Position numbers and translations under genes: made by a program. This document shows, in pieces, positions 3,760-62,303 of a stretch of 64,000 nucleotides of DNA. Each line of letters opens with the position of its first letter. Position 1 is the stretch's first letter. The DNA comes from a virus. The notes under the pieces were generated by a model. It was not told where the DNA came from. It saw only the letters and a program-made list of their open reading frames with translations, and did not search any database. The stretch lies in the IMG/VR virus record IMGVR_UViG_3300024352_000023, positions 1 through 64,000 of that record; one strand, 5' to 3'.

Positions 3760-3786
3760 TTGGCATTGCTTTGCATGTAAGTCCAA
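3760..3786 (+). ncRNA. GGC(A/G)...GUAAGUCC internal-loop hairpin, copy A
   Basis: UUGG-C-AUUGC-UUU-GCAU-GUAAGU-CCAA; same loop as copies at 57373, 61363 and 62259. Confidence 0.45.
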
Positions 3787-3840
3787 CCAACTGGACACGA
3801 ATCTTTGATTCACGGGGGCCAGTGTTGTTGCTTTAAAACC

Positions 3841-3957
3841 ATGATTCTTTGCCCTAATTTTGTCAAACGCCTGGCCACTAAACTCAGCGTTGTTGTTGCA
3901 CTGCAAGCTGTCTTTACTCCTGGTCTCCGCGCAGAGTCAAATTGGGTAGGAGAATAA
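3841..3957 (+). CDS. 38-aa signal-peptide-like small ORF (below ORF-track cutoff)
   Basis: MILCPNFVKRLATKLSVVVALQAVFTPGLRAESNWVGE*: basic N-region, hydrophobic core, L-R-A cleavage-like site. Confidence 0.45.
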   Translation: MILCPNFVKRLATKLSVVVALQAVFTPGLRAESNWVGE

Positions 3958-3970
3958 CGAGACAGAAGTC

Positions 3971-4654
3971 ATGGCACCAAGGACCGTACAACAACTCTTT
4001 AATCTCAAACCGGAAGAGCTTAATGCCCTTACGGTTCTTTCGGGTCTGGAAGGTTTCCGGGGCGAAGGAGGACGTGATGTTGCTGCTGTTGCAGCCAACG
4101 TTTTGGCACGTCGATTAAAAGGTAATTGGGGCGGTGTTGACATTCGTAACATCGCAAAAGCACCTGGTCAATACGAAGCTGTTTTCAATTACTCAATGGA
4201 ACAGCTTGCAGACCCAGCGTTTGCAGCTCGTGTATTAGGTGGAGAAGCGGAATTCAAACGCCTCCGCGATATTGTCAACAATCCCAACGTTGTTGGTGAA
4301 GAGTTCAAAAAAGCAAAAGGTGCTCAATCGTTCCGTGGCGTTGCCGCTTACGGAAACAGGAAACCTACTGATTACACACCGGTTCCAGGTAGAAGCAACT
4401 TCTACTTCAATCCCCTGGATCCAACCACATATCAAAAAGGTGTCAACATCTTTGGTGCGACCAACGTCGCTGCCCAACCTCCTGTACAACAAGCAAAGCC
4501 AAAACCCAAGGCTCAAGACCTTGCGGGTCAAAATCCAGCGTTGTTGTCAATGGCACAGCAGTTGTTTGCACCTTTAGTTGCACCTTCCCCTTCCAGTGGT
4601 CCGTTTGATGCTTTCACCAAAGCATTAACTCGCTTTGCCACTTTGGGACAATAA
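3971..4654 (+). CDS. SleB/CwlJ-like cell wall hydrolase (Hydrolase_2), probably virion-associated
   Basis: LEGFRGEGGRDVAAVAANVLARR...APGQYEAV matches the E-x-RGE...AVA-x-V-x-x-R...QF/Y motif. Confidence 0.6.
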   Translation: MAPRTVQQLFNLKPEELNALTVLSGLEGFRGEGGRDVAAVAANVLARRLKGNWGGVDIRNIAKAPGQYEAVFNYSMEQLADPAFAARVLGGEAEFKRLRDIVNNPNVVGEEFKKAKGAQSFRGVAAYGNRKPTDYTPVPGRSNFYFNPLDPTTYQKGVNIFGATNVAAQPPVQQAKPKPKAQDLAGQNPALLSMAQQLFAPLVAPSPSSGPFDAFTKALTRFATLGQ

Positions 4655-5251
4655 ACCAATTTGTTTTGGTTTTATTTGTTTGCAGCCCTTGGAATCATGC
4701 CTTTCTTTTGAAAAGGCTTTTTCCAAGGGCCAGTCATTGTTTAATCTTTTTTGCATAGACTGCGGACTAATGCCTACTTCTTTTGCCCAATCTGCAATAC
4801 ACATTGTTTTTCCTTCGAACGTGTAAAGCCTGGTAGCACGTTTGCCACCTCTATTGCGTGTTTGCTCCTTGTGTGTCGCCCATCGACAGTTTTCTTTGCA
4901 GTAATTTTTATTGTTATCTATTCTTTCTAGCTCCATTTTGGGATCCAATTTTTTACCCATATCTTCAAGGAATAAACTGAAATTTTCCCAACGAGAATCG
5001 TAACTAATGCCACGACCTCCGTAACGGTCATAAGCGTTGTGGTTTTTATTATTGCAACGATTTTTCATTGCATTCCATGAGCTATATTCTGGCGTTCTAT
5101 CTCGATTTCCACCGTGTTTAAATGAGGCACAGTTTTTGGAACAAAAAGTATAACCACGTTTTTTTAAGCGTTTTCGATGCCATGCTGCAGTATTTCCCTT
5201 TCGTTCATAGAACTCGCCACAACAAGAACACTGAAAAGTTGTTTGTGCCAT
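4625..5251 (-). CDS. Free-standing HNH homing endonuclease
   Basis: YSSWNAMKNRC...YGGRGI...FLEDMG...LERIDNNKNYCKENCRWATHKEQ is the classic phage HNH motif; AT-rich and antisense to its neighbours. Confidence 0.85.
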   Translation of the reverse strand: MAQTTFQCSCCGEFYERKGNTAAWHRKRLKKRGYTFCSKNCASFKHGGNRDRTPEYSSWNAMKNRCNNKNHNAYDRYGGRGISYDSRWENFSLFLEDMGKKLDPKMELERIDNNKNYCKENCRWATHKEQTRNRGGKRATRLYTFEGKTMCIADWAKEVGISPQSMQKRLNNDWPLEKAFSKERHDSKGCKQIKPKQIGLLSQSGKAS

Positions 5252-5300
5252 TAGAATAAGGGAAGTTTTCGGAGGCCCCTGTCAATATAGCAGAGACAGG

Positions 5301-6086
5301 GTGTTTAGTCCAATATCTAGTACTGCCACTAACAAGCAGCCACTGCTCGTTGATCGTCCGTTATTTGATTCGGTTCGAGTAACGACCCAGACTGTTGGTA
5401 CGCCGTCTACTTTGTTTGTGCAAGGTGGTCAAGCTCCGTCCATTTTGGTGGACATGGATGCTGCCCTGGAGCTTGATAACAACAATGGTGGTGTGATTGA
5501 TTCCATCACCATTGTCCGTAACGACTATTACCGTGATGCGGACTATGTTGTATCTAGCGGCACTTCTGGGACTGTTATTTCTATTACTAGCGGTCAAGTC
5601 GTATTAGTTTATGACACGGGTGTTGTAACCACTCCTGCTGCTAGTGGATTTGGTTATTACACTTACACTGGTACCACTACTCTGACCGGTGTTAACACCA
5701 AGCTTCTGTACTCTGGTGGTACGTCGAGTGGTTTTGCATACAACGGTGTGAACTATGGCTACCAGCCAGAAGTCACCTTTGTGTTCTACCAGACCCGTGG
5801 TACCACCACTCCGATTCCGGCATCGGGTGATTACAAGGTACTCTTTGCTAAGCAAGTCCCAGCCAATACCCAGCGTGTCGACTGTTCGGACGTGATGCCT
5901 GAGATGGCCGCTCCGATTGTTTCCGCTGGTAACACCACAGGTCTTGGTAACGGCGCTCCTCTACGCAACCGTGGCGTTTACCTGGAACGTGGCGACCGTA
6001 TTTACGTTGGCGTCTTTGCTGATGGTCCCAACACTTCCGGTTATATTCCAGGTGCTCATATTTACGCACAAGGCGGATTCTTCTGA
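5301..6086 (+). CDS. Virion structural protein (tail-associated?)
   Basis: 261 aa, beta-rich T/G composition, structural cluster; start codon uncertain. Confidence 0.45.
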   Translation: MFSPISSTATNKQPLLVDRPLFDSVRVTTQTVGTPSTLFVQGGQAPSILVDMDAALELDNNNGGVIDSITIVRNDYYRDADYVVSSGTSGTVISITSGQVVLVYDTGVVTTPAASGFGYYTYTGTTTLTGVNTKLLYSGGTSSGFAYNGVNYGYQPEVTFVFYQTRGTTTPIPASGDYKVLFAKQVPANTQRVDCSDVMPEMAAPIVSAGNTTGLGNGAPLRNRGVYLERGDRIYVGVFADGPNTSGYIPGAHIYAQGGFF

Positions 6087-6088
6087 TC

Positions 6089-7651
6089 GTGGCCAAAAAG
6101 GGTGGAAGCTCTTTTGGTAATTTCAATCGGGCTGAGGTTTTTGATCCTCGGCCCGTAAAACCAATCACGACCGAGTTTTCAAAAGGTTCGGTTCCTGATT
6201 CGATTTATGCTGTCAACCGCGAGTCGGCCTGGTCCCGCTGGCGCCGTGGTTACGAGATCGCAACAGCTTGTTTCTACGACAACTCATACGATTATCCCTT
6301 CACCTACACTGTGCCGATCCCAGCTGGTACCCCATCGACCGGCGGCAACCAACCGACAATCCCAGGTGTTTTCAAAGGATTCCCGACAAAGAATAAAGAA
6401 TTCGGCATGCACTGGGCTGGCGTACGCGTGGCTGGCAGCCTACGGTTTGATAATGTTCTTGATAGCACTGGGGTGCGTGCTTCTATTTCTTCTGTCACTG
6501 AGGACGCTAATTTCTGGTACGTCAAGCTGACAGGAACTTGGAGTGTTAGTAACCCACTTCCGCCTCCGCTTTACGTAGCGATTCCTGGTGTGCCAGGTGG
6601 ATTAAAAGCAATCAACGGTGAGATCTTGGAGGATCGCATTATTACTCCTGGTGGAACTCCGATTACTAGGGATACGATTGATCCGACAACACAAAAACGA
6701 TACGGATATGTGTCTGCTGTTTTAGCAGATACGGATCCATTTAATGGCATTCTCAAGATCCGTAAAGCCGGTTCTGTTGAAGCAACACCTGACCGTGCAC
6801 TGGTAACACCTGCGACTAGGCCGCCAAACGTCGGTCGTTTCTTCATGACGGGAACACGGTATTGCTGTTCTTGTCAGGACTTCAACCGTAGAGATTACGG
6901 TTTCATGAGTTCGTTGAACAAAGTTTCCGACTCGTTAAAAACCATGTTCCCTCGTACAAATGTGGCTTCCCTTAAGCCGGGTCGCTACGAAGTTATGACA
7001 TTGAAAGGAGTTGTTGATAACAATGCGATGACCAGTGCCACGGAAAACCGTGACATGCGAATTATTTCTCCGGCGCCGCAATATAACGTTCCACCGACTG
7101 TTACACCAACTGTCTCAACCAAACCTGGTGCAGCCAGAGACAATCCCGGTGTTTTCAGGGATTTTGGTGCGATGTATATCCGAGATACATCAGATCCCTC
7201 ATTGCCAGGCTCCAGGGCAGAGGGTATGCCTAGTTACGAGGACTACTCCGCTGCAGGGAATGTCATCACATCACTGACGGATACATGGACCCCACTGCTA
7301 GATGAGATGCGTTACTGCAAACACATCTACGCCATGAAATATGAGGAGGGCGTGTTTCCGCCGGAACCTTCCGATTTTCCAGTCGGCATTGAAAGCATGG
7401 CGGCATGGGAGCAAAAACTGGTGGCAGAAACTGAAAGCGATCAGATTGAAGCAAGGGCTGCCAATCTTCAGAGGCGTTCGTTATCCACCATGGACGTACC
7501 GCCTTACAACTGTCAGGCGCCCATGATGATGCCGATGATGCAAAAACTGTTCAACATTCCATCAACCTTTGTGAAGATGGCTGGGTTTACCATGATCGAT
7601 AAGAACGGGGGCAAGTACATTCCGGCTTCCGGTCAACGACCCGCTGTGTAG
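6089..7651 (+). CDS. Hypothetical protein with split SWIM-like zinc finger
   Basis: RYCCSCQDF and RYCKHIYA are about 150 aa apart. Confidence 0.5.
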   Translation: MAKKGGSSFGNFNRAEVFDPRPVKPITTEFSKGSVPDSIYAVNRESAWSRWRRGYEIATACFYDNSYDYPFTYTVPIPAGTPSTGGNQPTIPGVFKGFPTKNKEFGMHWAGVRVAGSLRFDNVLDSTGVRASISSVTEDANFWYVKLTGTWSVSNPLPPPLYVAIPGVPGGLKAINGEILEDRIITPGGTPITRDTIDPTTQKRYGYVSAVLADTDPFNGILKIRKAGSVEATPDRALVTPATRPPNVGRFFMTGTRYCCSCQDFNRRDYGFMSSLNKVSDSLKTMFPRTNVASLKPGRYEVMTLKGVVDNNAMTSATENRDMRIISPAPQYNVPPTVTPTVSTKPGAARDNPGVFRDFGAMYIRDTSDPSLPGSRAEGMPSYEDYSAAGNVITSLTDTWTPLLDEMRYCKHIYAMKYEEGVFPPEPSDFPVGIESMAAWEQKLVAETESDQIEARAANLQRRSLSTMDVPPYNCQAPMMMPMMQKLFNIPSTFVKMAGFTMIDKNGGKYIPASGQRPAV

Positions 7652-7653
7652 CC

Positions 7654-7875
7654 ATGGCAAATTTTGGTGACGTTGTTGCTACAAACTTTATTTATTCTCA
7701 GGAGCAAATTGATAGCCGTATCTATGGGGATAGTGAAATCTCTTACAGCGGTATCCCAACGGTGTACCACGCTGGAGATGTAGTACATCTGCCCTATGAG
7801 TCGGGCGAGACTTCCACCATGGAAGCCATTGGCCTGGCTTGGGCTGCCTTTGCTAGCGGCATTGGGCCAGAGTAA
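7654..7875 (+). CDS. Hypothetical protein
   Basis: 73-aa ORF tightly coupled to the upstream gene. Confidence 0.5.
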   Translation: MANFGDVVATNFIYSQEQIDSRIYGDSEISYSGIPTVYHAGDVVHLPYESGETSTMEAIGLAWAAFASGIGPE

Positions 7876-7984
7876 ACATAAAGTAAACTTATGGTAATCT
7901 GCAAAAGCAGATTAAGAAAACCTTTACCCCTTGCGACCTGGATACCCCTCTGTTTAGGGTCAGGTTATCCAGTTCATCTCAGCT

Positions 7985-8359
7985 ATGTCTCAATCACCGC
8001 CTGTTGACCAGCGGATTGTGGATGAGTACTTCCAGCTGGCTTCCCATCGCAAAACCAAGGATGTGGCGTGGCTTTACGGCATGGTCGCCACCTATGGCTT
8101 GAATCCTGATGAGTTGTCTGGTTTTGAGTGGGGCGCAGATAATACGATCCACATCCCCTCCAAGAAACGTAACATTCGCCCACTGCATCCCCAGTGGGTT
8201 TTGTTATTTGGTCTCAAAGAAAAGCAGCCCCGCGATCTGCAGGACTGCTGGAGCACCCTCTCGTCATCTATCTATGAGGCAATGGCGTTCCAGGATGTTC
8301 AGTTGAACATAACGGATTTAATCCTTGCCCACAGACTCCGCAAAAACCATTACCGCTAA
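7985..8359 (+). CDS. Degenerate tyrosine-recombinase (integrase) C-terminal-like fragment
   Basis: WLYGMVATYGLNPDEL...RPLHPQW resembles the cyanobacterial integrase box W-x-YGMLATYGLRPHE, with the catalytic Arg replaced by Asn. Confidence 0.5.
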   Translation: MSQSPPVDQRIVDEYFQLASHRKTKDVAWLYGMVATYGLNPDELSGFEWGADNTIHIPSKKRNIRPLHPQWVLLFGLKEKQPRDLQDCWSTLSSSIYEAMAFQDVQLNITDLILAHRLRKNHYR

Positions 8360-8360
8360 C

Positions 8361-8621
8361 TCAAGCAACGGCAGCCATTGTCCCTTGCTTTTGCAGGTGC
8401 TTCCTGACTGCTGGCACATTCCAACGATAGTTATCGCGGGACATACAACCAGGGAAAGCAGCGAAGTGCGGACCCAGCTTCAGGGTGCCATCATCGCGGT
8501 ACTTGAAGAGCGTCTTGCGGTCAAGCCCCAGGAGCTCTTCTGCTTTTTGAACGGATACCCATCCGTTAGCGGTGGTCATGGCGTAGAGAAACGCTTGCCT
8601 TAGTACAGTATCCGATGTCAA
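8361..8621 (-). CDS. Excisionase/MerR-like HTH DNA-binding protein
   Basis: WVSVQKAEELLGLDRKTLFKYRDDGTLKLGPHF...YRWNV. Confidence 0.65.
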   Translation of the reverse strand: MTSDTVLRQAFLYAMTTANGWVSVQKAEELLGLDRKTLFKYRDDGTLKLGPHFAAFPGCMSRDNYRWNVPAVRKHLQKQGTMAAVA

Positions 8622-8716
8622 GAGGGTGTCAACAGCCTTAAGGAAAGTTTTATCTCTTTGTCTTACCTGGGAAATTGTGTAGGGAAATTAGAATAAATTA
8701 ACGGCAATTAAATAGC

Positions 8717-9055
8717 ATGTTTTGCAACGAGCACGAGCCCCTCGCCTTGCTAGTTGAATTAACACCAAAACTTGCGAAAAAGAAATTCAGAGAAAGTATA
8801 TACGAAGCATGGAATCACAAATGCGGTTATTGCGGAGACAAAGCAACAAGCCTGGATCACATCGTTCCACGTTTCAAGTCGGGTTCTTCTAATCGACACA
8901 ACCTTGTTCCTTGCTGTCGGCGTTGTAACGCCCATAAAGGATCAGAGGAAATGAGGAGTTGGTTTCAGAAGCAAGATTTCTTTTCTACTGAAAACCTTGG
9001 TAAGATTGAAGCCTGGGTCCAACAAGAATCAGTCTTTATTTTTGGTGAGTGCTAA
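8717..9055 (+). CDS. HNH endonuclease
   Basis: CGYCG...LDHIVPRFKSGSSNRHNLVPCCRRCNAHK. Confidence 0.85.
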   Translation: MFCNEHEPLALLVELTPKLAKKKFRESIYEAWNHKCGYCGDKATSLDHIVPRFKSGSSNRHNLVPCCRRCNAHKGSEEMRSWFQKQDFFSTENLGKIEAWVQQESVFIFGEC

Positions 9056-12053: not shown

Positions 12054-12091
12054 TTTTCTCGCTAAGCTGCGTGAGCTGATTCCTTACCAGC

Positions 12092-32957: not shown

Positions 32958-33808
32958 ATTAGATCTGGATCGTACACATTGCAGTTTTCAATCTGCTTGT
33001 AGTATTCATCTACGATCTTGAGCCAATCCTCCCGGAGCATGTTGAGAAAGTTTCGGGAGATCTTGAAGACCTGGGTACGAGCTGGTGTTGAGACCAGGAT
33101 TGCTGCCTGCTGCACCTTCATGCCCAGGGTCTGTTCAATTGCAATGTCGTAGGCCGCAAGTTGCTTGCAGGTCTTCTTGAATTTCATGTGACCACCGAGC
33201 AGATCCCTCCACTCCTGGGACCCCTTCTCCAGATCTTTCGGCCACTTACGGCTGTAGGGTTTAACGCTGGTCTTTAAGTCCGCGAGCGTCAGCTTGTTAT
33301 TAGCCACAGCGATAATGTCAGGAGCACCAGCCCAAGCCCTGCCTTCGTCATCGCAACCCCAGACACGAGCGACATCATCAGCACCAATAGTGAAATCAAA
33401 CTTATCGAGTACAGGAGACTCAGCCCAAAGGACTTCCTGGAACTGATCCAGAATTGATGGCATACCTGCCCAAAAGTCTGCGTATTCCTCCTTGATTTCC
33501 GGGCTTTTATTCCCTTTGAGGTACTGCTCCATACCATAGTGAATGGCAGTGCCCCGCTCGGCTGCTTGTTCTTTAACACCTGGATTTGCTTTCGACCACA
33601 TTTCGAGCTTCCGTTTGTTTGCTTCGGAAGCTGTTTCGCTGATAATCGTAGTTACGGACGGCGCAGGTCCAGTGGGTAACGGAGTTGTATAGTGACGTTT
33701 TCCGTTAAGCGTAATTCTGGCTGCGGTCCTATTAAGGTCCCGCATCATCTCTGGTTGCTTATCCTTGGACTCAATCCAAGGATCACCTTGATTTATGTTA
33801 GCAACCAT
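32954..33808 (-). CDS. PD-(D/E)xK exonuclease
   Basis: PSVTTI, AAERGTAIH, WAGAPD...ADLKTS, QLAAY. Confidence 0.8.
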   Translation of the reverse strand: MVANINQGDPWIESKDKQPEMMRDLNRTAARITLNGKRHYTTPLPTGPAPSVTTIISETASEANKRKLEMWSKANPGVKEQAAERGTAIHYGMEQYLKGNKSPEIKEEYADFWAGMPSILDQFQEVLWAESPVLDKFDFTIGADDVARVWGCDDEGRAWAGAPDIIAVANNKLTLADLKTSVKPYSRKWPKDLEKGSQEWRDLLGGHMKFKKTCKQLAAYDIAIEQTLGMKVQQAAILVSTPARTQVFKISRNFLNMLREDWLKIVDEYYKQIENCNVYDPDLI

Positions 33809-36256: not shown

Positions 36257-37429
36257 ATGGCTCAATTTGATTGGCCCCTCCAGAAAAACACCATTGGGGT
36301 GCAGGAGAAATTTGAGCTGACCAAATTCATCTTGACCAGTGACCGTTTTACCAACGGTCCCAAGTGTCGTGAGTTTGAAAACGAGTGGTCCTCCTGGCAG
36401 AAACGCCAGTTCTCTTTGTTTGTCAGCAGCGGTACCACTGCTAATACGTTGCTGCTGGACGCCGTACGTGAGTTGTATTTTGGCAAGCATGCCAAGTTAA
36501 AGATCTTCTGCCCTGCCGTGAACTGGGCTACGAACATCTCGACGTTCAAGCAGCAGGGCCACGAGATGTTCTTCTATGACATTGACTACGAAGCCTATTC
36601 GCCGTGCTTTGAATCTTTAAAGAGATTTAAGGAATTGGACATTGAGCCTGATGTGATCTATGTGACGCACATCATGGGGTTTGCCAATGACCTGCGGCAG
36701 ATCAAAGAGTACTGGCCCGACGCAATCTTGCTGGAGGATTGCTGCGAATCCCATGGTGCCCTGGATCTTGACGACGAAAAAGTCGGCAATGCAGGCCTGG
36801 GCTCAACTTTCTCGTTTTACTTTGGGCATCACATGACCACCATTGAAGGCGGCATGGTCTGCACCGATAACGAGGAGCTGTACAACCTGATGCGTGCCAA
36901 GCGTTCTCACGGTATGTCTCGTGAGATGTACGGCTCGTACCGTCTGGCAGAAGAAGCCGCTGCCCCTGATATTGACCCGGCCTTCCTGTTCCCCACCGAA
37001 GGATATAACTTCCGCAATAACGAGTTGGGCGCAGTGATTGGCCTGGTGCAACTAAAGAAACTCGATAAGTTTGTCAGCAAACGCCAACAAAACTACTTTC
37101 AGTTCTACATGCACATGATGGATCACCCCTGGATCAAGCACTTACCCAACCCGTTTGGTAACAGTGCCATGACCTTCCCGTTCCATTGTGTATCATCTGA
37201 GACACGCAATTACCTGATCAAGCATCTGCGAGCGATTGGCGTGGAGACACGTCCCTTCCTGGTCGGCAACCTACTCCGTCAGCCTTTCATGAGGGATTAC
37301 AAGAAAAGTCCGTATTTGCCCAACAGCGAGGAGATTCACGACCACGCCTTCTATATTGGCAATAACCATTTCATTACAGAGCGCCAGATCAAAGCCCTGG
37401 CCAAGGAGTTGCACTCATGCGCTGCCTGA
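36257..37429 (+). CDS. DegT-family PLP enzyme, ColD/RfbH-like 3-dehydratase
   Basis: EDCCESHG and SFYFGHHMTTIEGG; His replaces the Schiff-base Lys, as in ColD/E1. Confidence 0.8.
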   Translation: MAQFDWPLQKNTIGVQEKFELTKFILTSDRFTNGPKCREFENEWSSWQKRQFSLFVSSGTTANTLLLDAVRELYFGKHAKLKIFCPAVNWATNISTFKQQGHEMFFYDIDYEAYSPCFESLKRFKELDIEPDVIYVTHIMGFANDLRQIKEYWPDAILLEDCCESHGALDLDDEKVGNAGLGSTFSFYFGHHMTTIEGGMVCTDNEELYNLMRAKRSHGMSREMYGSYRLAEEAAAPDIDPAFLFPTEGYNFRNNELGAVIGLVQLKKLDKFVSKRQQNYFQFYMHMMDHPWIKHLPNPFGNSAMTFPFHCVSSETRNYLIKHLRAIGVETRPFLVGNLLRQPFMRDYKKSPYLPNSEEIHDHAFYIGNNHFITERQIKALAKELHSCAA

Positions 37430-40311: not shown

Positions 40312-40992
40312 GTGACTACTCTTGTAGCCAACGTACCACCAGTCAAGGTGTGGGTACGCAGGGAGTATTTACGTGATCTGCGGGATGGGCATGGTGAGTA
40401 CACGCCCGGCTATTGGGTGACGTGTAAATCCCTTACGGGTCGTGCCCTGTACTTTGAGACCTACTTGACGGAGTACGGTGCGTTGTATGACAAGCTTCCT
40501 ATCAGTGCATTTCTTGCATGGGATCCCAACCATCCGAAAAAACCAGAAAGTCCAACACCAGACCTGGAGCTAACTGACCTGCAGTTTTGGAATGGATTTG
40601 ATCACGGGCTTACGGTCATTGAAAAGAACTTGATCTTCAATATGGAGTTTCAAGTGATGACGCGTAGTGCGGGTGTAATGAAGGGCACATACTTATTTAC
40701 GATTGACAATTATCATCCTCATAGAAACGAACCCGATTTCTACTTTGCGGAGTTCCCCGATGAGCACAAATCCCATAACATTGTGGCTCTGGACAACGGT
40801 CAAATTGGTGCTTATCCCAATAACCGTTGCCGCATGTGCGATCCATCACTGACCAATCACAACCTCAAGACCCCAGACTTCAAAGTATCTACCCGTTACT
40901 TTGATGTGGAGCATGCGCCCAAATGGGGACGCTTGGGCGAACAAGATGATTACTTCTGGAAGACACCCAACGAAATAAACACAGAAAGTTAA
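40312..40992 (+). CDS. Conserved phage hypothetical protein
   Basis: GALYDKLPISAF...YLFTID...EHKSHN...LDNGQ..AYPNNR. Confidence 0.65.
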   Translation: MTTLVANVPPVKVWVRREYLRDLRDGHGEYTPGYWVTCKSLTGRALYFETYLTEYGALYDKLPISAFLAWDPNHPKKPESPTPDLELTDLQFWNGFDHGLTVIEKNLIFNMEFQVMTRSAGVMKGTYLFTIDNYHPHRNEPDFYFAEFPDEHKSHNIVALDNGQIGAYPNNRCRMCDPSLTNHNLKTPDFKVSTRYFDVEHAPKWGRLGEQDDYFWKTPNEINTES

Positions 40993-41023: not shown

Positions 41024-41731
41024 ATGGCGCGTTCTACTGATTTCCTTTATCGATACCGTGACGTTTTAAACAAGTTACGTTCTGATAAGGATTCTGGTTT
41101 ATCCAATAAGCAGGAGCGCCGTACTGCGGCAAGGCAAGCACGTTCTGGCATCCGGAAAGATAAGGCTGCCGCCGCTGCTGCTGGTAATATTTATCAATCT
41201 CCTGCTGATAGAGCAGCTTCTGTTGCTGCCATTCCGCAAGAGTTCATTGATCGTTATGGCTCTCAGGCAGGAAGTATGTATGCCAACAGCCAAGTTAAGA
41301 GCGCAGATCTGAACAAACAATACGCTGCCGTTGGTGCAACCCAACAAGATATTGATCGTTACGGCAGTGATGCCTTAGATGTGGCGCGTGCACGTCAGTT
41401 AAACGAACTTCAAAAAAGTCGTGGTTTAGAAAGATTGACCGCTGGTTCACCAGAGCAACGTCAACAAGCTTTGGATGAAAGCTATCGGTTGGCGCAATCG
41501 GCTGGTATTCCTGCTGCCCGTGGATCCAAGGAAGCAACTCGTGAGTTCTATACCAAGGAGTTTGCAAAGTTTGGTGATAATCCAAACGTGTTTGGTATGA
41601 AGGATTTACTTGAGATGCGCAATCGTGGCGAGAGTGAAGGCGACATTCGTCGTATGGCTTTAACCATTGGTGCCGTTGGTCCTCAGGCCCAGAAAGCATT
41701 AGGCCTTGGCTATTTGAACCGCAACTTCTGA
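41024..41731 (+). CDS. Hypothetical protein (possible virion protein)
   Basis: TAGAAT upstream; Ala/Gln-rich helical ORF with an internal IDRYGS repeat. Confidence 0.5.
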   Translation: MARSTDFLYRYRDVLNKLRSDKDSGLSNKQERRTAARQARSGIRKDKAAAAAAGNIYQSPADRAASVAAIPQEFIDRYGSQAGSMYANSQVKSADLNKQYAAVGATQQDIDRYGSDALDVARARQLNELQKSRGLERLTAGSPEQRQQALDESYRLAQSAGIPAARGSKEATREFYTKEFAKFGDNPNVFGMKDLLEMRNRGESEGDIRRMALTIGAVGPQAQKALGLGYLNRNF

Positions 41732-45777: not shown

Positions 45778-45778
45778 C

Positions 45779-50432: not shown

Positions 50433-50452
50433 GGTTGTTTCGTAGTCAGGAG

Positions 50453-50480
50453 TGAGCAGTTTAACGTCATGCTCAGGACG
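50453..50480 (-). ncRNA. Leader pseudoknot repeat, copy 2
   Basis: CGUC-C-UGAGCA-U-GACG-UUAAAC-UGCUCA. Confidence 0.8.
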
Positions 50481-51549: not shown

Positions 51550-51569
51550 TGATTCAGACGGTAGGTGTT

Positions 51570-51597
51570 AAGGCAGTTTAACGTCATGCCTAGGACG
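51570..51597 (-). ncRNA. Leader pseudoknot repeat, copy 3
   Basis: CGUC-CU-AGGCA-U-GACG-UUAAAC-UGCCU-U. Confidence 0.8.
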
Positions 51598-54457: not shown

Positions 54458-54492
54458 GGTGTTAAGTTGAGTTGAATGATAAGTAAAACTAA

Positions 54493-54520
54493 TGAGCAGT
54501 TTAAGGACATGCTCAGGTCC
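54493..54520 (-). ncRNA. Leader pseudoknot repeat, copy 4
   Basis: GGAC-C-UGAGCA-U-GUCC-UUAAAC-UGCUCA. Confidence 0.8.
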
Positions 54521-54605
54521 ATCTTCCCGTTCGGGAGTGTTACACAATGAACGACATCATATACATCAAGCGTCATATACTTTCCGTATCAATCGCTACA
54601 GAATC

Positions 54606-54758: not shown

Positions 54759-54953
54759 ACAAAGCATTGATTGTTTACCTGGTGAACCAGAAAAAGAAAG
54801 TGGCACGCAAGGATGTGGAATCCAAGCATGCCATCAAGGAATTAGAAAAACAAACAACCGCGACCTTCTGATCGCCATTTGTTTACTTCGCCCTCTTGTT
54901 CTTCAGAGGGCTCACTGTATTTAAAGCCATCCATGCAGTTGAGCCATGGTGCA

Positions 54954-56568: not shown

Positions 56569-56863
56569 CCGTTGAGTTGAGGTTTAACGAGTCAAGGTGA
56601 TAGGCAGTTTGTTCTGCACCAATCAGTCGGAACGAATCTTTGATTAGTTCACTGTGTGGTGCGTCGAGATAGAACGCGTTGAGAAGTTGTTCAGCAGTTT
56701 CAAATGCATCGCATTTGCCTGTGAGTTTCATCATGACATCAGATGGCATGTTGTCCACAATCTTCTCGACCAGATGGTGACAGACGCGTTCCCACTCTGC
56801 ATCTGGAATGCAATCGGCAATGAGTTCTGTTACATCTTTAACAATCAGTGATTCAGAGATCAT
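56540..56863 (-). CDS. Hypothetical protein
   Basis: Start at MISESL after a terminator-like hairpin. Confidence 0.45.
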   Translation of the reverse strand: MISESLIVKDVTELIADCIPDAEWERVCHHLVEKIVDNMPSDVMMKLTGKCDAFETAEQLLNAFYLDAPHSELIKDSFRLIGAEQTAYHLDSLNLNSTDGLSEATPS

Positions 56864-56911
56864 GAAGAAAAGACCCCCGCTAGTGCAGGGGCCAAACATT
56901 CCGAGCAGATC

Positions 56912-57274
56912 TTAGGCAGCTTCTGCAGTGGTGTCTAGGGGCTCGTCTAGGACCCCTGACTCGCGGAGCTTATCGAGCATGCCAACCATAAGTGTGGCGT
57001 GTGCTCTGGTCTGTTCCATGAAGTGCTTAGCACGTTCTGGAGAGATGGTATGGACAGCGCCGTTGGGTTCAACGTAACGCCAGCTTCCATCAGGTTGCGG
57101 TTCACCCTGGAGCGCAAGCCGCTCAGAGTTATGGACGTACCGCATCTCAAGGTTGTGGTAATCCCGCAGACCATCGGAGCTAGTCCATGTAGCACCAAGG
57201 TTGTAGCGATTCTCTTCATCCGCATAAGCGTGGAACTCAGGGATGAGGGACTTAAAGGCAGCAAAGAATTGCAT
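56912..57274 (-). CDS. Hypothetical protein
   Basis: ACUCAACUCAAC leader immediately after tRNA-Leu. Confidence 0.55.
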   Translation of the reverse strand: MQFFAAFKSLIPEFHAYADEENRYNLGATWTSSDGLRDYHNLEMRYVHNSERLALQGEPQPDGSWRYVEPNGAVHTISPERAKHFMEQTRAHATLMVGMLDKLRESGVLDEPLDTTAEAA

Positions 57275-57295
57275 GATGTTGAGTTGAGTGTGGGC

Positions 57296-57371
57296 TGGTA
57301 GCCGACCCCGGATTCGAACCGGGACTTGAGCGATTTTAAGTCGCTTGCCTCTGCCGTTGGGCTAGTCGGCC
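57296..57371 (-). tRNA. tRNA-Leu(UAA), short variable loop, CCA encoded
   Basis: GGCCGAC-UA-GCCCAACGGCAGAGGC-A-AGCGA-CUUAAAA-UCGCU-CAAGU-CCCGG-UUCGAAU-CCGGG-GUCGGCU-A-CCA. Confidence 0.9.
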
Positions 57372-57580
57372 TCACTTGGACTTACCTCTACATCAATGGA
57401 TGTGGAGTGCCAAGTGTGGTCATGGGGTAATGGCTCAGTGCCATACTCCCATGTGTCGTAGTCTTCCTCGTTACGAGGATCGTCTTCAATCAGGATGTAC
57501 TTAGGTGAGTTGTCTGTGATGTACTCACCAATGTTTGCCATTGCCATGGCAAGCAGTTGATCATCTGTGTAATCAGACAT
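57362..57580 (-). CDS. Acidic hypothetical protein
   Basis: 72 aa; the stop codon lies inside the 5' end of the tRNA. Confidence 0.4.
   Translation of the reverse strand: MSDYTDDQLLAMAMANIGEYITDNSPKYILIEDDPRNEEDYDTWEYGTEPLPHDHTWHSTSIDVEVSPSEAD
57373..57416 (-). ncRNA. GGC(A/G)...GUAAGUCC internal-loop hairpin, copy B (abuts tRNA-Leu 5' end)
   Basis: CACUUGG-CA-CUC-C-ACAUC-CAUU-GAUGU-A-GAG-GUAAGU-CCAAGUG. Confidence 0.6.
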
Positions 57581-57630
57581 GAGTTAAAGGGGCATCCCTA
57601 TAACGAGGATAGGATGCCCCTGCTGTGGCT

Positions 57631-59337
57631 TCAGCTATCAGATGCTAGCTGTTTCTCACGAGATTGCAAGGCTTGCTTGAATGCTTGTGAGTATTGCTCA
57701 CGTTGCTCATCATCAAGGCGTTGGTTTGCAACACCTGCAATCTGAACAACGTTCATGACACCCATGGATACATCCAGCTGGATGGTGAAGGTTGGCTTGC
57801 CATCAATCATGCAGAGCACAATGAAGTGCTTGCGTTTCTTGATGTCTTCTGCATACCTGGATGCAGAGCCAACACAGTTACGTACTGCTTGTCCCCACTG
57901 TGCAAGTTGGTGGGTATCCATTGGCTGGAAGAATGTCCAGTCACTGTCATCCACGTTGACCTTGATTGGTTGAGGGAACAGATCCTGGTGCAATGACTCC
58001 TTACGATTGGTTACCTTCCATGCTTCTGCTTGCACATAGTCATGGAAGTCAGGCATGCGCCAGCGCTTGGGTGCTTCAAGTTCCTTACCATTCTCCAAGA
58101 TACGCATGATCATGGAGAATGTATCATTCATCTCAAAGAATGATTTGACATGGTAGTCGTAATCACTCCATGAGCTACGAAGTGCACCTGTCTCCGTTTC
58201 ATTAAACTTGCGTAGCATATTAAAGAACGATGCAACGGGCGTGTTCTCCTTCAACCATTGGATAAGACGTTCGTCATACCTGAATTGGTTGAGATTAATA
58301 CAACGCAGTTCATTGAAGTATGTACGATAGTGATCAATAGGGCAGTCAGGCCAGATTCGAATAATGAATTCAATAGAATTACAAGTCTGTTCAAATTCCT
58401 TGAAACCATACTTGATAGATTTACGTTGTGTATTTTCTGGACTGTTGTACTCAGTAGTTGAACGATCAAGCATTGCTTGAAGTTGTTTCTTGATATACGG
58501 AGTAGTAATGATTGTTTCAGTCTTGCTTAAACATGTACCGTAAGACGAATAGCCATAGTCATTCTTCAGTAGCTTAGATGTTGCAATTAAGTTATCAACA
58601 GTGAGTTCATACTTGGTCTTGTCAGGTATAGGTTTGCTAAAGAATGCAGGCATGTCGAGTGCATCAACAAGGTTGTTGCAACGCAAGCGATCAAAGATAC
58701 CACGGCTATCAGTCCATTGAGGAATGGTTGTCATCAACTGAGATTCAAACCTATTAATTGTTTCATTAATGTCACGTGCTTTCTGGTAGTAACTAGCAAT
58801 ACCCATGGCACGCCAGTTGCGACTGTCTTTGCCATTGATGATGTCTTGCTTAGTTACTGTTGCAGAGTAAGTAAAGACTTGTGAACCACGACCAATGGTA
58901 TGTGGAGTACAAGTTTCTATTGTCTTGTAAATATGATTTGGAACCTGCTTAGCAGCAGCTGCAGTGTTCTTGAATGCGTAGGCGTAGCCATAGACATAGT
59001 CTTCGCCTTTCTGTGGGAGCCATGCTGCGTACCAGCATTGCTCGAAGTGATAAAGGACAGCGATAGGTACAGTGCGTGCTTGTGAAGTTGCCACGTCCAC
59101 AAGCTTGGTAAACAAACGAATACGCCCTGGTGCTAGCTGTGCATTGATATGATCAATAGCTTCTTGCTGATAGCTGGAGCGTACCACATCTTCAGGGATG
59201 AGATGTGGGATGTTACCCAGTGGATACTTAGCTTTCTTCGTAGCTTTCTTGGGTTGATTGTCTTTGACCAAAGCCTTGAGCTTTGGATCATAAGCAAGCA
59301 GTTCTTGTTGGAGATGAGAGGGAAGTTGGAAATGCAT
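57631..59337 (-). CDS. PcfJ-domain protein
   Basis: FHDYV...LAQWGQAVRNCVGS..Y...FTIQL...VQIAGVAN; start reassigned to MHFQL. Confidence 0.7.
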   Translation of the reverse strand: MHFQLPSHLQQELLAYDPKLKALVKDNQPKKATKKAKYPLGNIPHLIPEDVVRSSYQQEAIDHINAQLAPGRIRLFTKLVDVATSQARTVPIAVLYHFEQCWYAAWLPQKGEDYVYGYAYAFKNTAAAAKQVPNHIYKTIETCTPHTIGRGSQVFTYSATVTKQDIINGKDSRNWRAMGIASYYQKARDINETINRFESQLMTTIPQWTDSRGIFDRLRCNNLVDALDMPAFFSKPIPDKTKYELTVDNLIATSKLLKNDYGYSSYGTCLSKTETIITTPYIKKQLQAMLDRSTTEYNSPENTQRKSIKYGFKEFEQTCNSIEFIIRIWPDCPIDHYRTYFNELRCINLNQFRYDERLIQWLKENTPVASFFNMLRKFNETETGALRSSWSDYDYHVKSFFEMNDTFSMIMRILENGKELEAPKRWRMPDFHDYVQAEAWKVTNRKESLHQDLFPQPIKVNVDDSDWTFFQPMDTHQLAQWGQAVRNCVGSASRYAEDIKKRKHFIVLCMIDGKPTFTIQLDVSMGVMNVVQIAGVANQRLDDEQREQYSQAFKQALQSREKQLASDS

Positions 59338-59366
59338 GAGTTGAGTTCGTAGTTGGTTCGTAGTGT

Positions 59367-59394
59367 TGAGCAGTTTAACGTCGTACTCAGGACG
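59367..59394 (-). ncRNA. Leader pseudoknot repeat, copy 5
   Basis: CGUC-C-UGAGUA-C-GACG-UUAAAC-UGCUCA (U-G wobble in stem 2). Confidence 0.8.
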
Positions 59395-59402
59395 TGATGT
59401 CA

Positions 59403-60143
59403 TTACGATTCAACTGTTAACAATTGAATGTTGTAATGTTTGATCCATTCCACCAGCTTTGCTGTGGCTTCTGGTGACTCCAGACCAATGCATCCACTGG
59501 TACCGGACTCACCGTTGAGTTTGCCCCAGCTTGGATCTTGGTGGAAGCCAAGGGCTGAACGGTTGGTGTTGAATAAAGGAATCACTGGTACCCAGAATCC
59601 TTTACCAAGTTCTGGATCATCGAATGGTGCACGGGCAATGCCGTACCGATCGATGGAGTATGTGCCGATGGGCAGTGGTGATTTGTTGCCAGCAATGTTG
59701 CGATTCGCTGTTTGCTTAGAGGCACGTCCTGTTAGAGCAGGCATGCTATCCAGGACTTGACCGTTGGCAACCAACTGTAGTTTCCAGATTGGATCCTTGG
59801 TTTGCTTAACGGTCTCCTTGGTGCGAATCAGCAACAGCTTTGCTGACGGACGATTGCGTGCAGGTGGGATGGGTACATTGTTCTTGAATTGGATCTCAGG
59901 ACGCTCGGAGCCTGGCTCTGGTGGGGCACCAGGGGTTGGTGTGGCATCGAGGGGTAGCATCCCATCAGGGACGCTGCGAGCCATATCACCAGGCCCTTGC
60001 TCTAGAGGTTGTGAGTACATCAATGAACGCAAGTGATCTTGCTGTTCATTGTGATGAGTAACCATGTTGTTGATGTTGTGGACTGCAACGGCAGATCCAA
60101 CACCAAGTGCAGTTGAGATGAGTGCAATCATTGGTAGTTTCAT
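59403..60143 (-). CDS. Secreted/anchored L,D-transpeptidase (YkuD-like)
   Basis: N-terminal hydrophobic segment; PLPIGTY...LGFH.D...GTSGCIGL catalytic H...C motif. Confidence 0.75.
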   Translation of the reverse strand: MKLPMIALISTALGVGSAVAVHNINNMVTHHNEQQDHLRSLMYSQPLEQGPGDMARSVPDGMLPLDATPTPGAPPEPGSERPEIQFKNNVPIPPARNRPSAKLLLIRTKETVKQTKDPIWKLQLVANGQVLDSMPALTGRASKQTANRNIAGNKSPLPIGTYSIDRYGIARAPFDDPELGKGFWVPVIPLFNTNRSALGFHQDPSWGKLNGESGTSGCIGLESPEATAKLVEWIKHYNIQLLTVES

Positions 60144-60146
60144 TGG

Positions 60147-60536
60147 TTACATGTTACCTGGCCCTGTGGGTGCAGGCGCTGAGTAGTATGCAGGAGCTGC
60201 ATCAAAGTTTCCAGGTCCTGTGCTTGGAGCACGAGGAGGTGGCGGTGGAGGAGTAGGTTGCGGTACAACAGGTTGTTCAACAACAGTTGGAGTTGGTTGC
60301 TGAGTTTGTTGTACTGGTTCTTCTTTGGTTTCAGTTTGGGTCTGGCCGTCTTCTTTGAGCTTGGCTTCCCATTCTTGTTTCGCTTTTACCTGTGGGTCAG
60401 GATCAAGCTTGCCGTCCTGGTCAGGTTGATTATTTGGCATCAATCCACCAATGACCATTTGCATGGTGGCAACACCAGCACAGGCGATGAGGAAGCCAAT
60501 GAAGACTGCGACGCCAAGGATGATCTTTCTTGTCAT
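60147..60536 (-). CDS. Membrane-anchored Pro/Gln-rich protein
   Basis: N-terminal TM helix, Pro-rich linker, twice-repeated TGPGN. Confidence 0.55.
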   Translation of the reverse strand: MTRKIILGVAVFIGFLIACAGVATMQMVIGGLMPNNQPDQDGKLDPDPQVKAKQEWEAKLKEDGQTQTETKEEPVQQTQQPTPTVVEQPVVPQPTPPPPPPRAPSTGPGNFDAAPAYYSAPAPTGPGNM

Positions 60537-60802
60537 CGGCAGAGGTAGTCAGAGCGCATCCAGCCAACGAGTCCGTTGTATTCAACGCGATACCAACGCA
60601 TTTGATCACCGCCCCATACCCAGTCCAATGCCCGGAGGTATTGACTGTTCGGTATGGAGGCGATGACTGTGTTGTTCTTGGATGGGCCATTGCGTAGGTT
60701 GACAGATGAACCAGGGTCCCTGGTACATGTCATGGCCCATTGTGCGTTGGCCGGAAGTGCGATAAAGAAGTTAAGTGCGAGTAGTGAAAGCCAGTGTTTC
60801 AT
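60533..60802 (-). CDS. Secreted bacterial SH3 (SH3b) domain protein
   Basis: Signal peptide ending ANA; VNLRNGPS...VIASIP...WYRVEYNGLVGWMRSDYL. Confidence 0.8.
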   Translation of the reverse strand: MKHWLSLLALNFFIALPANAQWAMTCTRDPGSSVNLRNGPSKNNTVIASIPNSQYLRALDWVWGGDQMRWYRVEYNGLVGWMRSDYLCR

Positions 60803-60822
60803 GGATAGGTAGATACTGTTAA

Positions 60823-60850
60823 TGGGCAGTTTAACGTCATGCCCAGGACA
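60823..60850 (-). ncRNA. Leader pseudoknot repeat, copy 6
   Basis: UGUC-C-UGGGCA-U-GACG-UUAAAC-UGCCCA. Confidence 0.8.
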
Positions 60851-60900
60851 ATGTGTTAAAGAGTTAGAACTTCTTTAACGTATTAGAAGTTATGTGTTAG

Positions 60901-61155
60901 TTAATCATATTCAACGAGTTGCCACTGTGGATCGAGCTGATCAAGATACAGAGCGAAGCCATCTTCGTCAAGAGGAATCGGTTCGTCTGGATCCAGCTCG
61001 ACAGTTGCTGTACAAAGTGCTGGAGCCCACTCTTCAGGATCAAGATGAGTTGCTCGATAGAGTAGGCGCATTTCGTCAACAAGCGCTGTAACAGTGACAT
61101 GAGTTTCAGTGAATTGAACGTCTTCAATAGCAAGGACTGAACAGTAGTTAACCAT
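60901..61155 (-). CDS. Hypothetical protein
   Basis: 84 aa, acidic, TAATG-coupled. Confidence 0.5.
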   Translation of the reverse strand: MVNYCSVLAIEDVQFTETHVTVTALVDEMRLLYRATHLDPEEWAPALCTATVELDPDEPIPLDEDGFALYLDQLDPQWQLVEYD

Positions 61156-61340
61156 TAGCCTTCATCCACGTAGGAATACGTTTTGGTGATGACGCACTTG
61201 TACTTATTCCATGCACGAGCACTGGTGTACTCGGCATTGAAACGTTGTTCGTTAAGTACGTTGGCTTGTGCCCTGCGCACAGCGCATGCAGCAAGATTAA
61301 TTCGATCAAACAAGTTGATGTCGTCGGTGAAAGCAGACAT
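61155..61340 (-). CDS. Hypothetical protein
   Basis: MSAFTDD start after an ACUCAACUCAAAUC leader. Confidence 0.5.
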   Translation of the reverse strand: MSAFTDDINLFDRINLAACAVRRAQANVLNEQRFNAEYTSARAWNKYKCVITKTYSYVDEG

Positions 61341-61362
61341 GATTTGAGTTGAGTTAGTGGAC

Positions 61363-61427
61363 AGAAGCTGGGACTTACACTGCCTCCTTCTGTGCTGTTT
61401 GCACAACGAGTACAGACGCCCAGTTCT
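61363..61427 (-). ncRNA. GGC(A/G)...GUAAGUCC internal-loop hairpin, copy C
   Basis: CUGGG-CG...UGUGC-AAACA-GCACA...GUAAGU-CCCAG; intergenic. Confidence 0.55.
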
Positions 61428-61625
61428 TTAGATTAGCTTAATGTTTGGAATGCTTAGTCCAGTGCCAGGAATACTGACTGATCCTTTGACGCCATTGGGA
61501 CTGGCGTTGAGAGTCAGCTGGAATGGACCAAGCTTGACTGCTTTAGTCAGTGATTTGACACCGTGTTCGGTGATGTTTACACCATGGATGGTGCGATCAA
61601 AACTGATGAGTGATTTCTTAGTCAT
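61428..61625 (-). CDS. DUF4236-like small protein
   Basis: KAVKLGPFQLTLN.S..GV..SVSIPGTGLS. Confidence 0.5.
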   Translation of the reverse strand: MTKKSLISFDRTIHGVNITEHGVKSLTKAVKLGPFQLTLNASPNGVKGSVSIPGTGLSIPNIKLI

Positions 61626-61828
61626 TTGAGATCGTCTGGTAGTAGCGCTTGGGATTCTTCTTCGTCCATATTTGTCATAACAAATTTCTGTCCATCGGGG
61701 GCAATAAAGCCCCCTATGAATCCCATACCAAGACGATCGGATGTTTCCTTCATACGTGCAACTAATTGCATAGCTTGAAGTCTTTGCATATCCATGGAGT
61801 CTGGTATGCGAGGAGTGTTGTTAGTCAT
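61622..61828 (-). CDS. Hypothetical protein
   Basis: MTNNTPR start after a CAUUCACUCCACAC leader. Confidence 0.5.
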   Translation of the reverse strand: MTNNTPRIPDSMDMQRLQAMQLVARMKETSDRLGMGFIGGFIAPDGQKFVMTNMDEEESQALLPDDLK

Positions 61829-61958
61829 TGAGATAGTGTGGAGTGAATGATGAGAGTCTACCAGGCTTGTCAAGGTAAGACCAGGGGTATGTAGATAAAG
61901 GTTCCTTATCTAATATAAGGTTTACCCCTGGTACTCCCCTGCGGGGGTGCAGGGGGGA

Positions 61959-62231
61959 TTACGAGTGCATAGCCTGGTGTTCTTTCCATGCAGCTGCGTG
62001 CATTTCTGCAGCAGTGATAGGTGGTTCACCTAGTTCGTTTGGTGTTGGGTCGTAGTCAAGTTCTTCCTCCAGCATGGAGATGATCTCTTCGACTACACCT
62101 TTGGTATGTGGTGCAAGATGTTCGTCCATCTCATGTCGCTTGCTTTCGCGAGCAAGGACATTCTTAAGGATGGAGCGTACTTCTTCCAGGTAGTAATACT
62201 CGTTTTGTGGATAAGCTTTGGCTTGTTCCAT
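61959..62231 (-). CDS. Hypothetical protein
   Basis: MEQAKAY start after an identical CAUUCACUCCACAC leader. Confidence 0.5.
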   Translation of the reverse strand: MEQAKAYPQNEYYYLEEVRSILKNVLARESKRHEMDEHLAPHTKGVVEEIISMLEEELDYDPTPNELGEPPITAAEMHAAAWKEHQAMHS

Positions 62232-62258
62232 GATTGGTTTGGTGTGGAGTGAATGTAA

Positions 62259-62303
62259 ACCCTGGGACTTACGCACCGTACTTACGTCGATGCTGCCCAG
62301 GGT
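62259..62303 (-). ncRNA. GGC(A/G)...GUAAGUCC internal-loop hairpin, copy D
   Basis: ACCCUGGG-CA-GCAUCG-ACGUAAGUA-CGGUGC-GUAAGU-CCCAGGGU. Confidence 0.6.

Follow-up and report, generated by a model that had tools for sequence, protein, structure and literature searches.

The stretch of DNA analysed here (the window) comprises positions 1-64,000 of an 83,145-bp IMG/VR virus record, IMGVR_UViG_3300024352_000023, which is rated complete. It belongs to a phage genome distantly related to Synechococcus phage S-EIVl (KJ410740), the only cultured relative found, to which 12% of a 6-kb query aligns at 73% DNA identity. Four copies of a short hairpin with an asymmetric loop are dispersed along the window, one abutting a tRNA gene and two standing ahead of start codons, as a first-pass annotation of the sequence had proposed. 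They are referred to below as copies A to D, with their scores against R1, a covariance model built from an alignment of 57 distinct hairpin copies from related phages:

3760-3786, plus strand: copy A, outer stem UUGG/CCAA, a short inner hairpin and the GUAAGU loop (R1 27.1 bits, E = 9e-5)
57580-57362, minus strand: open reading frame (ORF) of 72 aa, with copy B falling in its last codons (GUA AGU CCA, read as V S P)
57416-57373, minus strand: copy B, outer stem CACUUGG/CCAAGUG and a 9-pair inner stem (R1 37.1 bits)
57296-57371, minus strand: tRNA-Leu(UAA), identified by ARAGORN and Rfam RF00005, with copy B ending 1 nt upstream
61423-61368, minus strand: copy C, perfect outer stem CUGGG/CCCAG and a long imperfect inner hairpin (R1 34.3 bits)
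61341-61367, minus strand: leader after copy C, 27 nt, G-poor
62303-62259, minus strand: copy D, outer stem ACCCUGGG/CCCAGGGU and inner stem GCAUCG/CGGUGC (R1 46.9 bits, E = 1.3e-10)
62232-62258, minus strand: leader after copy D, 27 nt, G-poor

All four copies follow the pattern GG-C(A/G)...G-UAAGU-CC and lie where they had been annotated, the span originally given for copy C (61427-61363) including an imperfect extension of the stem. The motif is commoner than expected by chance, with seven occurrences of GTAAGTCC in the window vs 1.5 +/- 1.1 in shuffles; the three occurrences outside the four copies (50268 and 52017 on the minus strand, 53072 on the plus strand) fall within ORFs and form no hairpin. 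Applied to the window, R1 picks out exactly four copies (E = 1.3e-10, 1e-7, 6.5e-7 and 9e-5) and nothing else convincing, a fifth weak match at 33761-33783 (minus strand, E = 0.055) being a plain hairpin that lacks the loop and is a non-member. An exact-pattern search of the entire record yielded no copy beyond the four. The same model recovers three copies in S-EIVl. Hairpin copies of S-EIVl are located at 36745-36782, 40726-40787 and 41436-41478 (minus strand) and at 65516-65541 (plus strand). Folding z-scores against shuffles are -3.0 for copy B, -2.6 for copy C, -4.8 for copy D and -0.5 for copy A. Because energy cannot separate the short copy A from shuffled sequence, its membership rests on the R1 match and on a syntenic counterpart in S-EIVl (65516-65541), which follows coding sequence AHV82233.1.

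Related loci were gathered using the PcfJ-like protein encoded at 57631-59403 (minus strand) as query, which returned 23 IMG/VR loci; related and matching loci are labelled by L-numbers (e.g. L019, L023, L079). Their gene strand carries up to seven GTAAGTCC per 20 kb, compared with zero to two on the opposite strand. The family consensus reads 5'-C-U-N-G-G-C-R-(hairpin, 8 to ~40 nt)-G-UAAGU-C-C-N'-A-G-3'. Its shortest form measures 27-28 nt (e.g. CUGGGCAUCCGUAAGGUGUAAGUCCCAG) and contains 9-10 bp in total, five of them in the outer stem and the other four or five in the inner one. In the alignment of 57 distinct copies U, GG, GUAAGU, CC and A are invariant and the C is near-invariant. Four of the five outer-stem pairs are conserved in sequence, and the inner hairpin is free to vary in sequence, length and loop, its apical loop shrinking to as little as 4 nt. 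GUAAGU is found in 64 of 78 distinct R1 matches, the remainder being AUAAGU (6), GUAAGC (3) and singletons, and UAAG is almost invariant.

The hairpin family is a real, covarying RNA fold. Pairing in the 57 copies occupies 86.8% of alignment cells vs 72.4% after shuffling and at most 47% when the partners are slid against each other. Pair 6-60 is GC in 40 copies, UA in 15 and AU in 2, with zero mismatches, and two inner pairs vary among CG, UA, UG and AU. This covariation is repeated in 123 further distinct copies, in line with the earlier description of stems that differ and still pair around a constant asymmetric loop. The sense strand folds better than the antisense strand in 109 of 166 elements and G-U pairs make up 104 of 2,234 predicted pairs, both of which point to an RNA that acts on the coding strand. 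Together, the sequence-fixed pairs of the outer stem and the constant UAAGU bulge suggest either a junction locked by tertiary contacts or a site for a specific reader, and they are the least explained feature of the hairpin.

Several variations on the fold were observed. At sites orthologous to copy C, relatives harbor an inner hairpin that is either long or only 10 nt. The apical loop of copy D (62277-62287, minus strand) repeats the motif (ACGUAAGUAC) and could make a C-GUAA-G tetraloop; D-type copies of relatives carry GUAAAU, GUCAGU or GCCAAC there, so the repeated motif is not required in that loop. At L023:3700-3800, L100, L048, L112 and L025:3818 the hairpin occurs as a subtype, CUUGGCAUCCACACUUCAGUGGUGUAAG(U/C)CCAAG, that is enclosed by GGUCACG and CGUGACC and looks like part of a longer conserved structure or coding stretch.

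Copy C begins 4 nt past the stop codon 61430-61428 and ends 27 nt short of ATG 61340; copy D begins 15 nt past the stop codon 62321-62319 and likewise ends 27 nt short of ATG 62231. Copy A lies 8 nt past the stop of ORF 2726-3751 and has no start codon close by, the next ORF opening at 3971, 184 nt downstream. Generally, the hairpin lies on the sense strand without exception, mostly begins 0-12 nt past a stop codon, is preceded by A-rich bases, and ends 22-33 nt (mode 26-30 nt) ahead of the ATG that opens an ORF. For statistics, 194 distinct hairpin contexts were considered. An ORF starting with ATG opens 16-40 nt downstream in 139 of them (72%), compared with 13.8% of random same-strand positions and 11% in antisense; for the narrower interval of 22-33 nt the values are 62% of contexts and 7% of random same-strand positions. 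A stop codon lies within 15 nt upstream in only 108 contexts (56%), and in 36 the upstream ORF enters or traverses the hairpin. Given the 139 starts against 108 stops and the 36 copies that overlap an ORF, the element is tied more tightly to the downstream than to the upstream unit.

G accounts for 1-11% of the leaders behind the hairpins, and their U content is raised at +2 to +4 (62%, 51% and 44%). In the window, the leaders that follow hairpins, pseudoknots and the tRNA (61341-61367, 62232-62258 and 57275-57295, all minus strand) have G-poor repeats of the ACUCAACUCAA type in common and no Shine-Dalgarno sequence, and ACUCAA is present in 47 of 131 leaders. ACUUAC, which is complementary to GUAAGU, is present in some leaders, but pairing between bulge and leader was rejected as a general feature, a 5-nt complement being found in 23 of 131 leaders vs 14.5 +/- 3.5 in shuffled ones.

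A second class of downstream unit is tRNA. In 15 checked loci the gap between hairpin and tRNA measures 1-4 nt, and among the 55 non-redundant tRNA genes in the loci examined, 40 are preceded by a copy that ends no more than 6 nt (in most cases 1-4 nt) upstream, a fraction that is inflated because the loci were fetched through the hairpin, which leaves the spacing unaffected. The adjoined tRNAs comprise 76-nt and 86-nt tRNA-Leu(UAA) types and one tRNA-Asn, and they stand behind several unrelated hairpins. Since these tRNAs are untranslated, the general function of the element cannot be translational. Both sets of contexts, those near an ATG and those near a tRNA, bear out the proposed link to the 5' side of mRNAs and tRNAs. 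At the site of copy B itself, relatives (L019, L023, L029, L030) carry either a 76-nt tRNA-Leu(UAA) or a class II tRNA-Leu(UAA) of 86-87 nt; the 76-nt form, without a long variable arm, is unusual for a bacterial tRNA-Leu.

The 72-aa ORF around copy B is, judged from its sequence relationships, a real gene. It is homologous to the S-EIVl coding sequence AHV82188.1 and has 22 orthologues, and a strain variant in an RNA-library contig differs from it only at multiple-of-three spacing. In the S-EIVl homologue of copy B compensatory changes keep the fold, with both bases of a U-A pair replaced to give G-C and a mismatch repaired, and the amino acids differ. The stop codon of the ORF, TAG, coincides with positions 8-10 of the tRNA-Leu (57362-57371, minus strand), so that processing by RNase P would strip the upstream message of its stop; in S-EIVl, where the tRNA is absent from the site, the same ORF stops 15 nt past the hairpin. 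RNA data were limited to Logan contigs from four of six RNA-labelled riverine runs, which have a depth of 1-8, may include DNA and cannot show RNA ends. One of these contigs (57296-58089) runs from the PcfJ-like gene across copy B and ends exactly at the tRNA 3' end, and another (60711-61559) spans copy C, weakly hinting that unprocessed precursors exist.

Hairpins share their sites with a second small fold, a coremin-like pseudoknot, which is found six times in the window, always on the same strand:

60821-60849, minus strand: coremin-like pseudoknot, GUC-CUGGGCAU-GAC-GUUAAAC-UGCCCA, ahead of an early gene
63256-63284, 59365-59393, 54491-54519, 51568-51596 and 50451-50479, minus strand: five further coremin-like pseudoknots, ahead of other early genes

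The general form of these pseudoknots is GUC-CUGRGCAU-GAC-GUUAAAC-UGCYCA, with GUUAAAC or CUUAAAC as spacer. Comparison of orthologous genes across 25 related genomes reveals that hairpin and pseudoknot trade places. The gene at 63235 has a pseudoknot in this phage, and its orthologues have a hairpin in eight cases and a pseudoknot in two; the gene behind copy D is preceded by a hairpin in 17 orthologues and by a pseudoknot in one, and the PcfJ-like gene by a pseudoknot in 17 and a hairpin in two. These exchanges confirm the earlier remark that hairpin and pseudoknot fill equivalent sites. Both modules contain a CUGGG(C)/(G)CCCAG-type helix that an A-rich strand enters on the 5' side, which may reflect a common origin or a common reader. 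Two of the pseudoknots (59365-59393 and 50451-50479) lie inside the longest ORF calls of the PcfJ-like gene and of a 356-aa gene, respectively, whose true starts are probably the ATGs ~27 and ~20 nt past the knots, near 59337 and 50431.

The family extends well beyond the relatives of this phage. The pattern CTGGGCR-N9-39-GTAAGTCCCAG occurs in at least 119 IMG/VR stretches, with 98 distinct sequences among the matches listed, nearly all of which fold as expected; in 100 of these stretches R1 finds 193 matches with 96% pairing. A strict subtype, CTGGGCAUCC...GGUGUAAGUCCCAG, was present in at least 120 contigs from JGI and other metagenomes, some of them marine, and gave zero matches in 185,579 prokaryote species represented by one genome each. 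Matches of a looser pattern in prokaryote genomes look like chance hits, as only 9 of 121 pass the inner-stem test compared with 78 of 152 in viral contigs. On the strength of the strict-subtype scan, the hairpin family appears to be confined to phages. Among the 119 listed viral stretches, 42 have no protein in common with this phage or S-EIVl, and their G+C content ranges from 0.28 to 0.65. One unrelated group has the hairpin 45-49 nt ahead of a Phage_cap_E major capsid gene, and a lambda-like group (G+C ~0.63) has it between the gpA terminase and the lambda-type portal gene. In the Phage_cap_E group (L079, L103, L106, L107 and others), behind the hairpin come another conserved hairpin (GUGUGCACAC) and then UUUGAAGACA with a GGAG ribosome-binding site, so that the composite leader measures 45-49 nt. 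Relatives of the window phage with complete genomes contain 4-8 copies on a single strand within ~10 kb, and unrelated phages carry the hairpin as a single copy. Such single copies are easier to reconcile with a fold that works by itself, or with a host factor, than with a phage nuclease dedicated to the element.

Comparison with described RNA families, suggested in the first-pass annotation, returned no match in Rfam 15: at gathering score the window yields only tRNAs, nothing overlaps the four copies at E values up to 10, and seven related loci contain tRNAs and no hammerhead or other Rfam family. A literature search found no publication describing the hairpin family. When a 34-nt copy was compared by BLAST with 50,697 phage records, only partial chance matches came up, in a search that is insensitive for a short, variable element.

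The fold, its conservation, its spread, its position and its swapping with the pseudoknot are established; the barrier function and the enzymes involved are what we infer from them. We favour, tentatively, a reading in which the hairpin works as a portable RNA module: it would set the 5' boundary of the RNA unit that follows and shield it. The hairpin would be transcribed within polycistronic phage messages and act in cis, marking the 5' border of an mRNA leader of ~28 nt or of a tRNA. The two G-C pairs, the C-G pair and the UAAGU bulge would create a compact, sequence-specific junction at which 5'-to-3' decay arriving from upstream halts, with an RNase J exonuclease or 5'-end-dependent RNase E as candidate enzymes. 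The downstream unit would keep a structured, protected 5' end, the G-poor leader would stay single-stranded for ribosome loading, and at tRNAs the module would be removed by RNase P. The interchangeable coremin-like pseudoknot would do the same job. RNase E and RNase J are both essential in cyanobacteria, and in Synechocystis, RNA fragments that start with strong structure withstand 5'-end-dependent decay (PMC8682795). The coremin motif, for its part, stalls Xrn1 and scanning ribosomes (PMC10520033).

Several observations weigh against a 5'-boundary role. Besides copy A, approximately 19 contexts have a close upstream stop and no close downstream start. The shallow RNA-library contigs bridge copies B and C with no visible break, at a depth of 1-8 that cannot show ends. 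A plain stable hairpin would suffice as a barrier, so this model alone leaves the invariant bulge unexplained, and a tRNA, being strongly structured already, hardly needs a 5' shield. Moreover, some hosts of the unrelated phages may lack a 5' exonuclease, and the analogy to coremin is built on eukaryotic enzymes.

Coremin (xrRNA-C, an exoribonuclease-resistant RNA) of beny-, cucumo- and other RNA viruses, and the coremin-like knots of phages, resemble the hairpin as small, portable intergenic folds, the knots occupying the same sites in these phages, and as folds in which an A-rich single strand (UAAGU or GUUAAAC) enters the 3' arm of a CUGGG/CCCAG-type helix. The hairpin differs in being nested, without a pseudoknot, and in having a variable apical loop, and nuclease resistance in bacteria is an analogy for both modules. 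A coremin is recognised by hp1, whose 3-bp GUC/GAC stem carries a YGAD or YGNNAD loop (PMC10520033); such an hp1 is absent from all hairpin copies, and neither the coremin spacer GUUAAAC(UAC) nor its second hairpin occurs in the hairpin family, whose conserved strand, (G)UAAGU, lies within the hairpin itself. In class 3 xrRNAs of plant viruses, a T-loop-like L2B apical loop docks on J1/2 and closes a ring by pairing with 3' sequence (PMC12397905). This class was excluded, given the unconserved apical loop and a bulge-leader complement in only 23 of 131 leaders. Likewise, the 57-copy alignment excludes a kink-turn, which combines a 3-nt bulge with tandem sheared G-A pairs, because the strand opposite the bulge offers only C-A/G and no tandem G-A pair is possible. 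Stem-loops that stabilise messages from their 5' terminus are known from the ompA leader of E. coli and from the 5' stabilisers of B. subtilis. Like the phage element, they are stable hairpins on the 5' edge of a message with an unstructured leader behind them; they are promoter-proximal, gene-specific and without a conserved loop, unlike the phage hairpin, which is internal, mobile and marked by an invariant bulge.

A site-specific processing signal is the strongest of the competing readings, doubtful as we find it. Here, a host or phage endonuclease would cut in or just 3' of the bulged junction, in the style of T7 RNase III sites, whose internal loop guides one single cut to the 3' side, and free an mRNA with a ~25-35-nt leader or a single-stranded tRNA 5' leader ready for RNase P. 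The strict conservation of the loop and of four of five outer-stem pairs agrees with this, as does the fixed spacing to start codons and to tRNA +1, and U at +2 to +4 together with the A-rich upstream bases recalls the A-U clamp of cyanobacterial RNase E (PMC8682795). On the other hand, contig ends are not piled up at the hairpins in 120 metagenome contigs among the matches listed, and the RNA-library contigs that cross copies B and C weakly oppose cleavage. Canonical RNase III substrates need approximately two helical turns. The early-mRNA RNase III sites of T7 (R0.3-R1.3, e.g. R1.1) are intercistronic helices of ~20 bp with an asymmetric internal loop. Both are phage intercistronic hairpins whose asymmetric loop has a functional 3' side and which precede start codons by tens of nucleotides; the present family differs in its minimum of 9-10 bp, its loop sequence and its adjacency to tRNAs, and cleavage is known for T7 alone. 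With 9-10 bp in its smallest members (a 5-bp outer and a 4-5-bp inner stem), the hairpin falls short of a two-turn helix, which makes RNase III unlikely. Pfam detected no RNase among the 116 ORFs of the phage, nor an RNA polymerase, sigma factor or RNA-binding domain, with the same outcome when 40 early ORFs were rerun, although this absence is weak evidence because most phage ORFs belong to no family. The first-pass annotation had envisaged a protein-binding or processing module, acted on by RNase III or a phage nuclease, that matures mRNA and tRNA ends. Its tie to the 5' sides of these RNAs stands; RNase III is disfavoured by the short members, and a dedicated phage nuclease by the lack of a recognised candidate and by the single copies in unrelated phages.

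A bolder form of the 5'-boundary reading, one we regard as rather doubtful, would make the hairpin a new, unknotted nuclease-resistant RNA class of bacterial viruses. In it, the UAAGU bulge would fold onto the invariant outer-stem pairs (G-C, G-C, U-A and C-G), and RNase J or scanning RNase E would halt at the 5' base. The element, 28 nt long and self-sufficient, would then be the bacterial equivalent of eukaryotic viral xrRNAs and could functionally stand in for the coremin-like knot, and the knot for it.

The hairpin could instead belong to the gene upstream, as a 3'-end stabiliser against 3' exonucleases or a weak terminator, with a cut close behind it, by RNase P at a tRNA or RNase E in the leader, leaving a message that ends in the hairpin. 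We consider this unlikely, even though the hairpin usually starts 0-12 nt past a stop codon and the gap of 1-4 nt to tRNA +1 would leave nearly no 3' tail. Copy A and its S-EIVl counterpart also suit a 3' element, as they follow a virion-module gene and lie ~185 nt from the next gene, as does the U run behind a few copies (L121, L160, L096 and L147). Starts are nevertheless coupled more tightly than stops (139 vs 108 of 194), 36 copies lie within the upstream ORF, and a 3' element has no need of a conserved bulge. Intrinsic terminators were rejected, since no U tract directly follows the hairpin, where U is raised only at +2 to +4 (44-62%), few members have U runs, and the terminator scan at copy A was negative. 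The gene upstream of copy A (2726-3751, plus strand) has 566 relatives, none of them named, and no Pfam or PHROG match. Many of these relatives sit on contigs of ~1.1 kb, barely longer than the gene; such contigs may have been assembled at transcript length from a virion gene with high expression.

It is decidedly improbable that the hairpin serves as the operator of a trans-acting phage or host RNA-binding protein that co-regulates translation or folding, comparable to the coat-protein hairpins of MS2/PP7 or the RegA and gp32 sites of T4. Invariant unpaired bases between invariant G-C pairs are typical of protein sites, and the 4-8 copies per genome, on one strand within ~10 kb, would allow several early genes to be controlled jointly. 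Against such control speak the copies ahead of untranslated tRNAs, the distance of ~28 nt to the ATG, which exceeds the usual range of steric repression, the single copies in unrelated phages with no detectable common protein in the stretches examined, and the failure to find an RNA-binding domain, though most ORFs are unannotated.

A role at the DNA level, either as a promoter (with GTAAGT as a -10-like box, or a hairpin promoter of the phage N4 type) or as a hotspot of cassette recombination resembling the PeSL promoter-terminator cassettes of T4-type phages, is very improbable: the 9-11 nt from GTAAGT to tRNA +1, the uniform leader lengths, the dispersal of conserved repeats among small early ORFs as in PeSLs (PMC2839356, PMC4122927) and their differing presence at orthologous sites would fit, but GTAAGT lacks the key -10 bases, A(-11)/T(-7), a scan at copy A found no sigma-70 promoter with -35 and -10 elements at 16-18 nt, the 5' arm lies a variable 10-40 nt from the box, covariation includes G-U pairs, no phage RNA polymerase or sigma factor was found, and shuffling, possibly a by-product, leaves the conserved bulge unexplained. 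PeSLs are short conserved stem-loops that separate small early genes in variable regions and may provide material for modular shuffling, and they carry a sigma-70 early promoter (PMC2839356, PMC4122927); the hairpin has no recognisable promoter and is conserved according to RNA pairing rules.

The hairpin is a new and sharply defined RNA family, found hundreds of times in viral contigs of marine and freshwater origin, and together with the coremin-like knot it forms a set of interchangeable small RNA folds that punctuate long phage messages. How phages partition and stabilise polycistronic RNA without a promoter or Shine-Dalgarno sequence at each gene is poorly understood, and a cultured host-phage pair that harbors the element exists in S-EIVl on Synechococcus sp. 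PCCC-A2c. Should the fold block or direct ribonucleases unaided, it would provide a 28-nt module for insulating and stabilising cyanobacterial transcripts, and the xrRNA principle would reach into bacteria.

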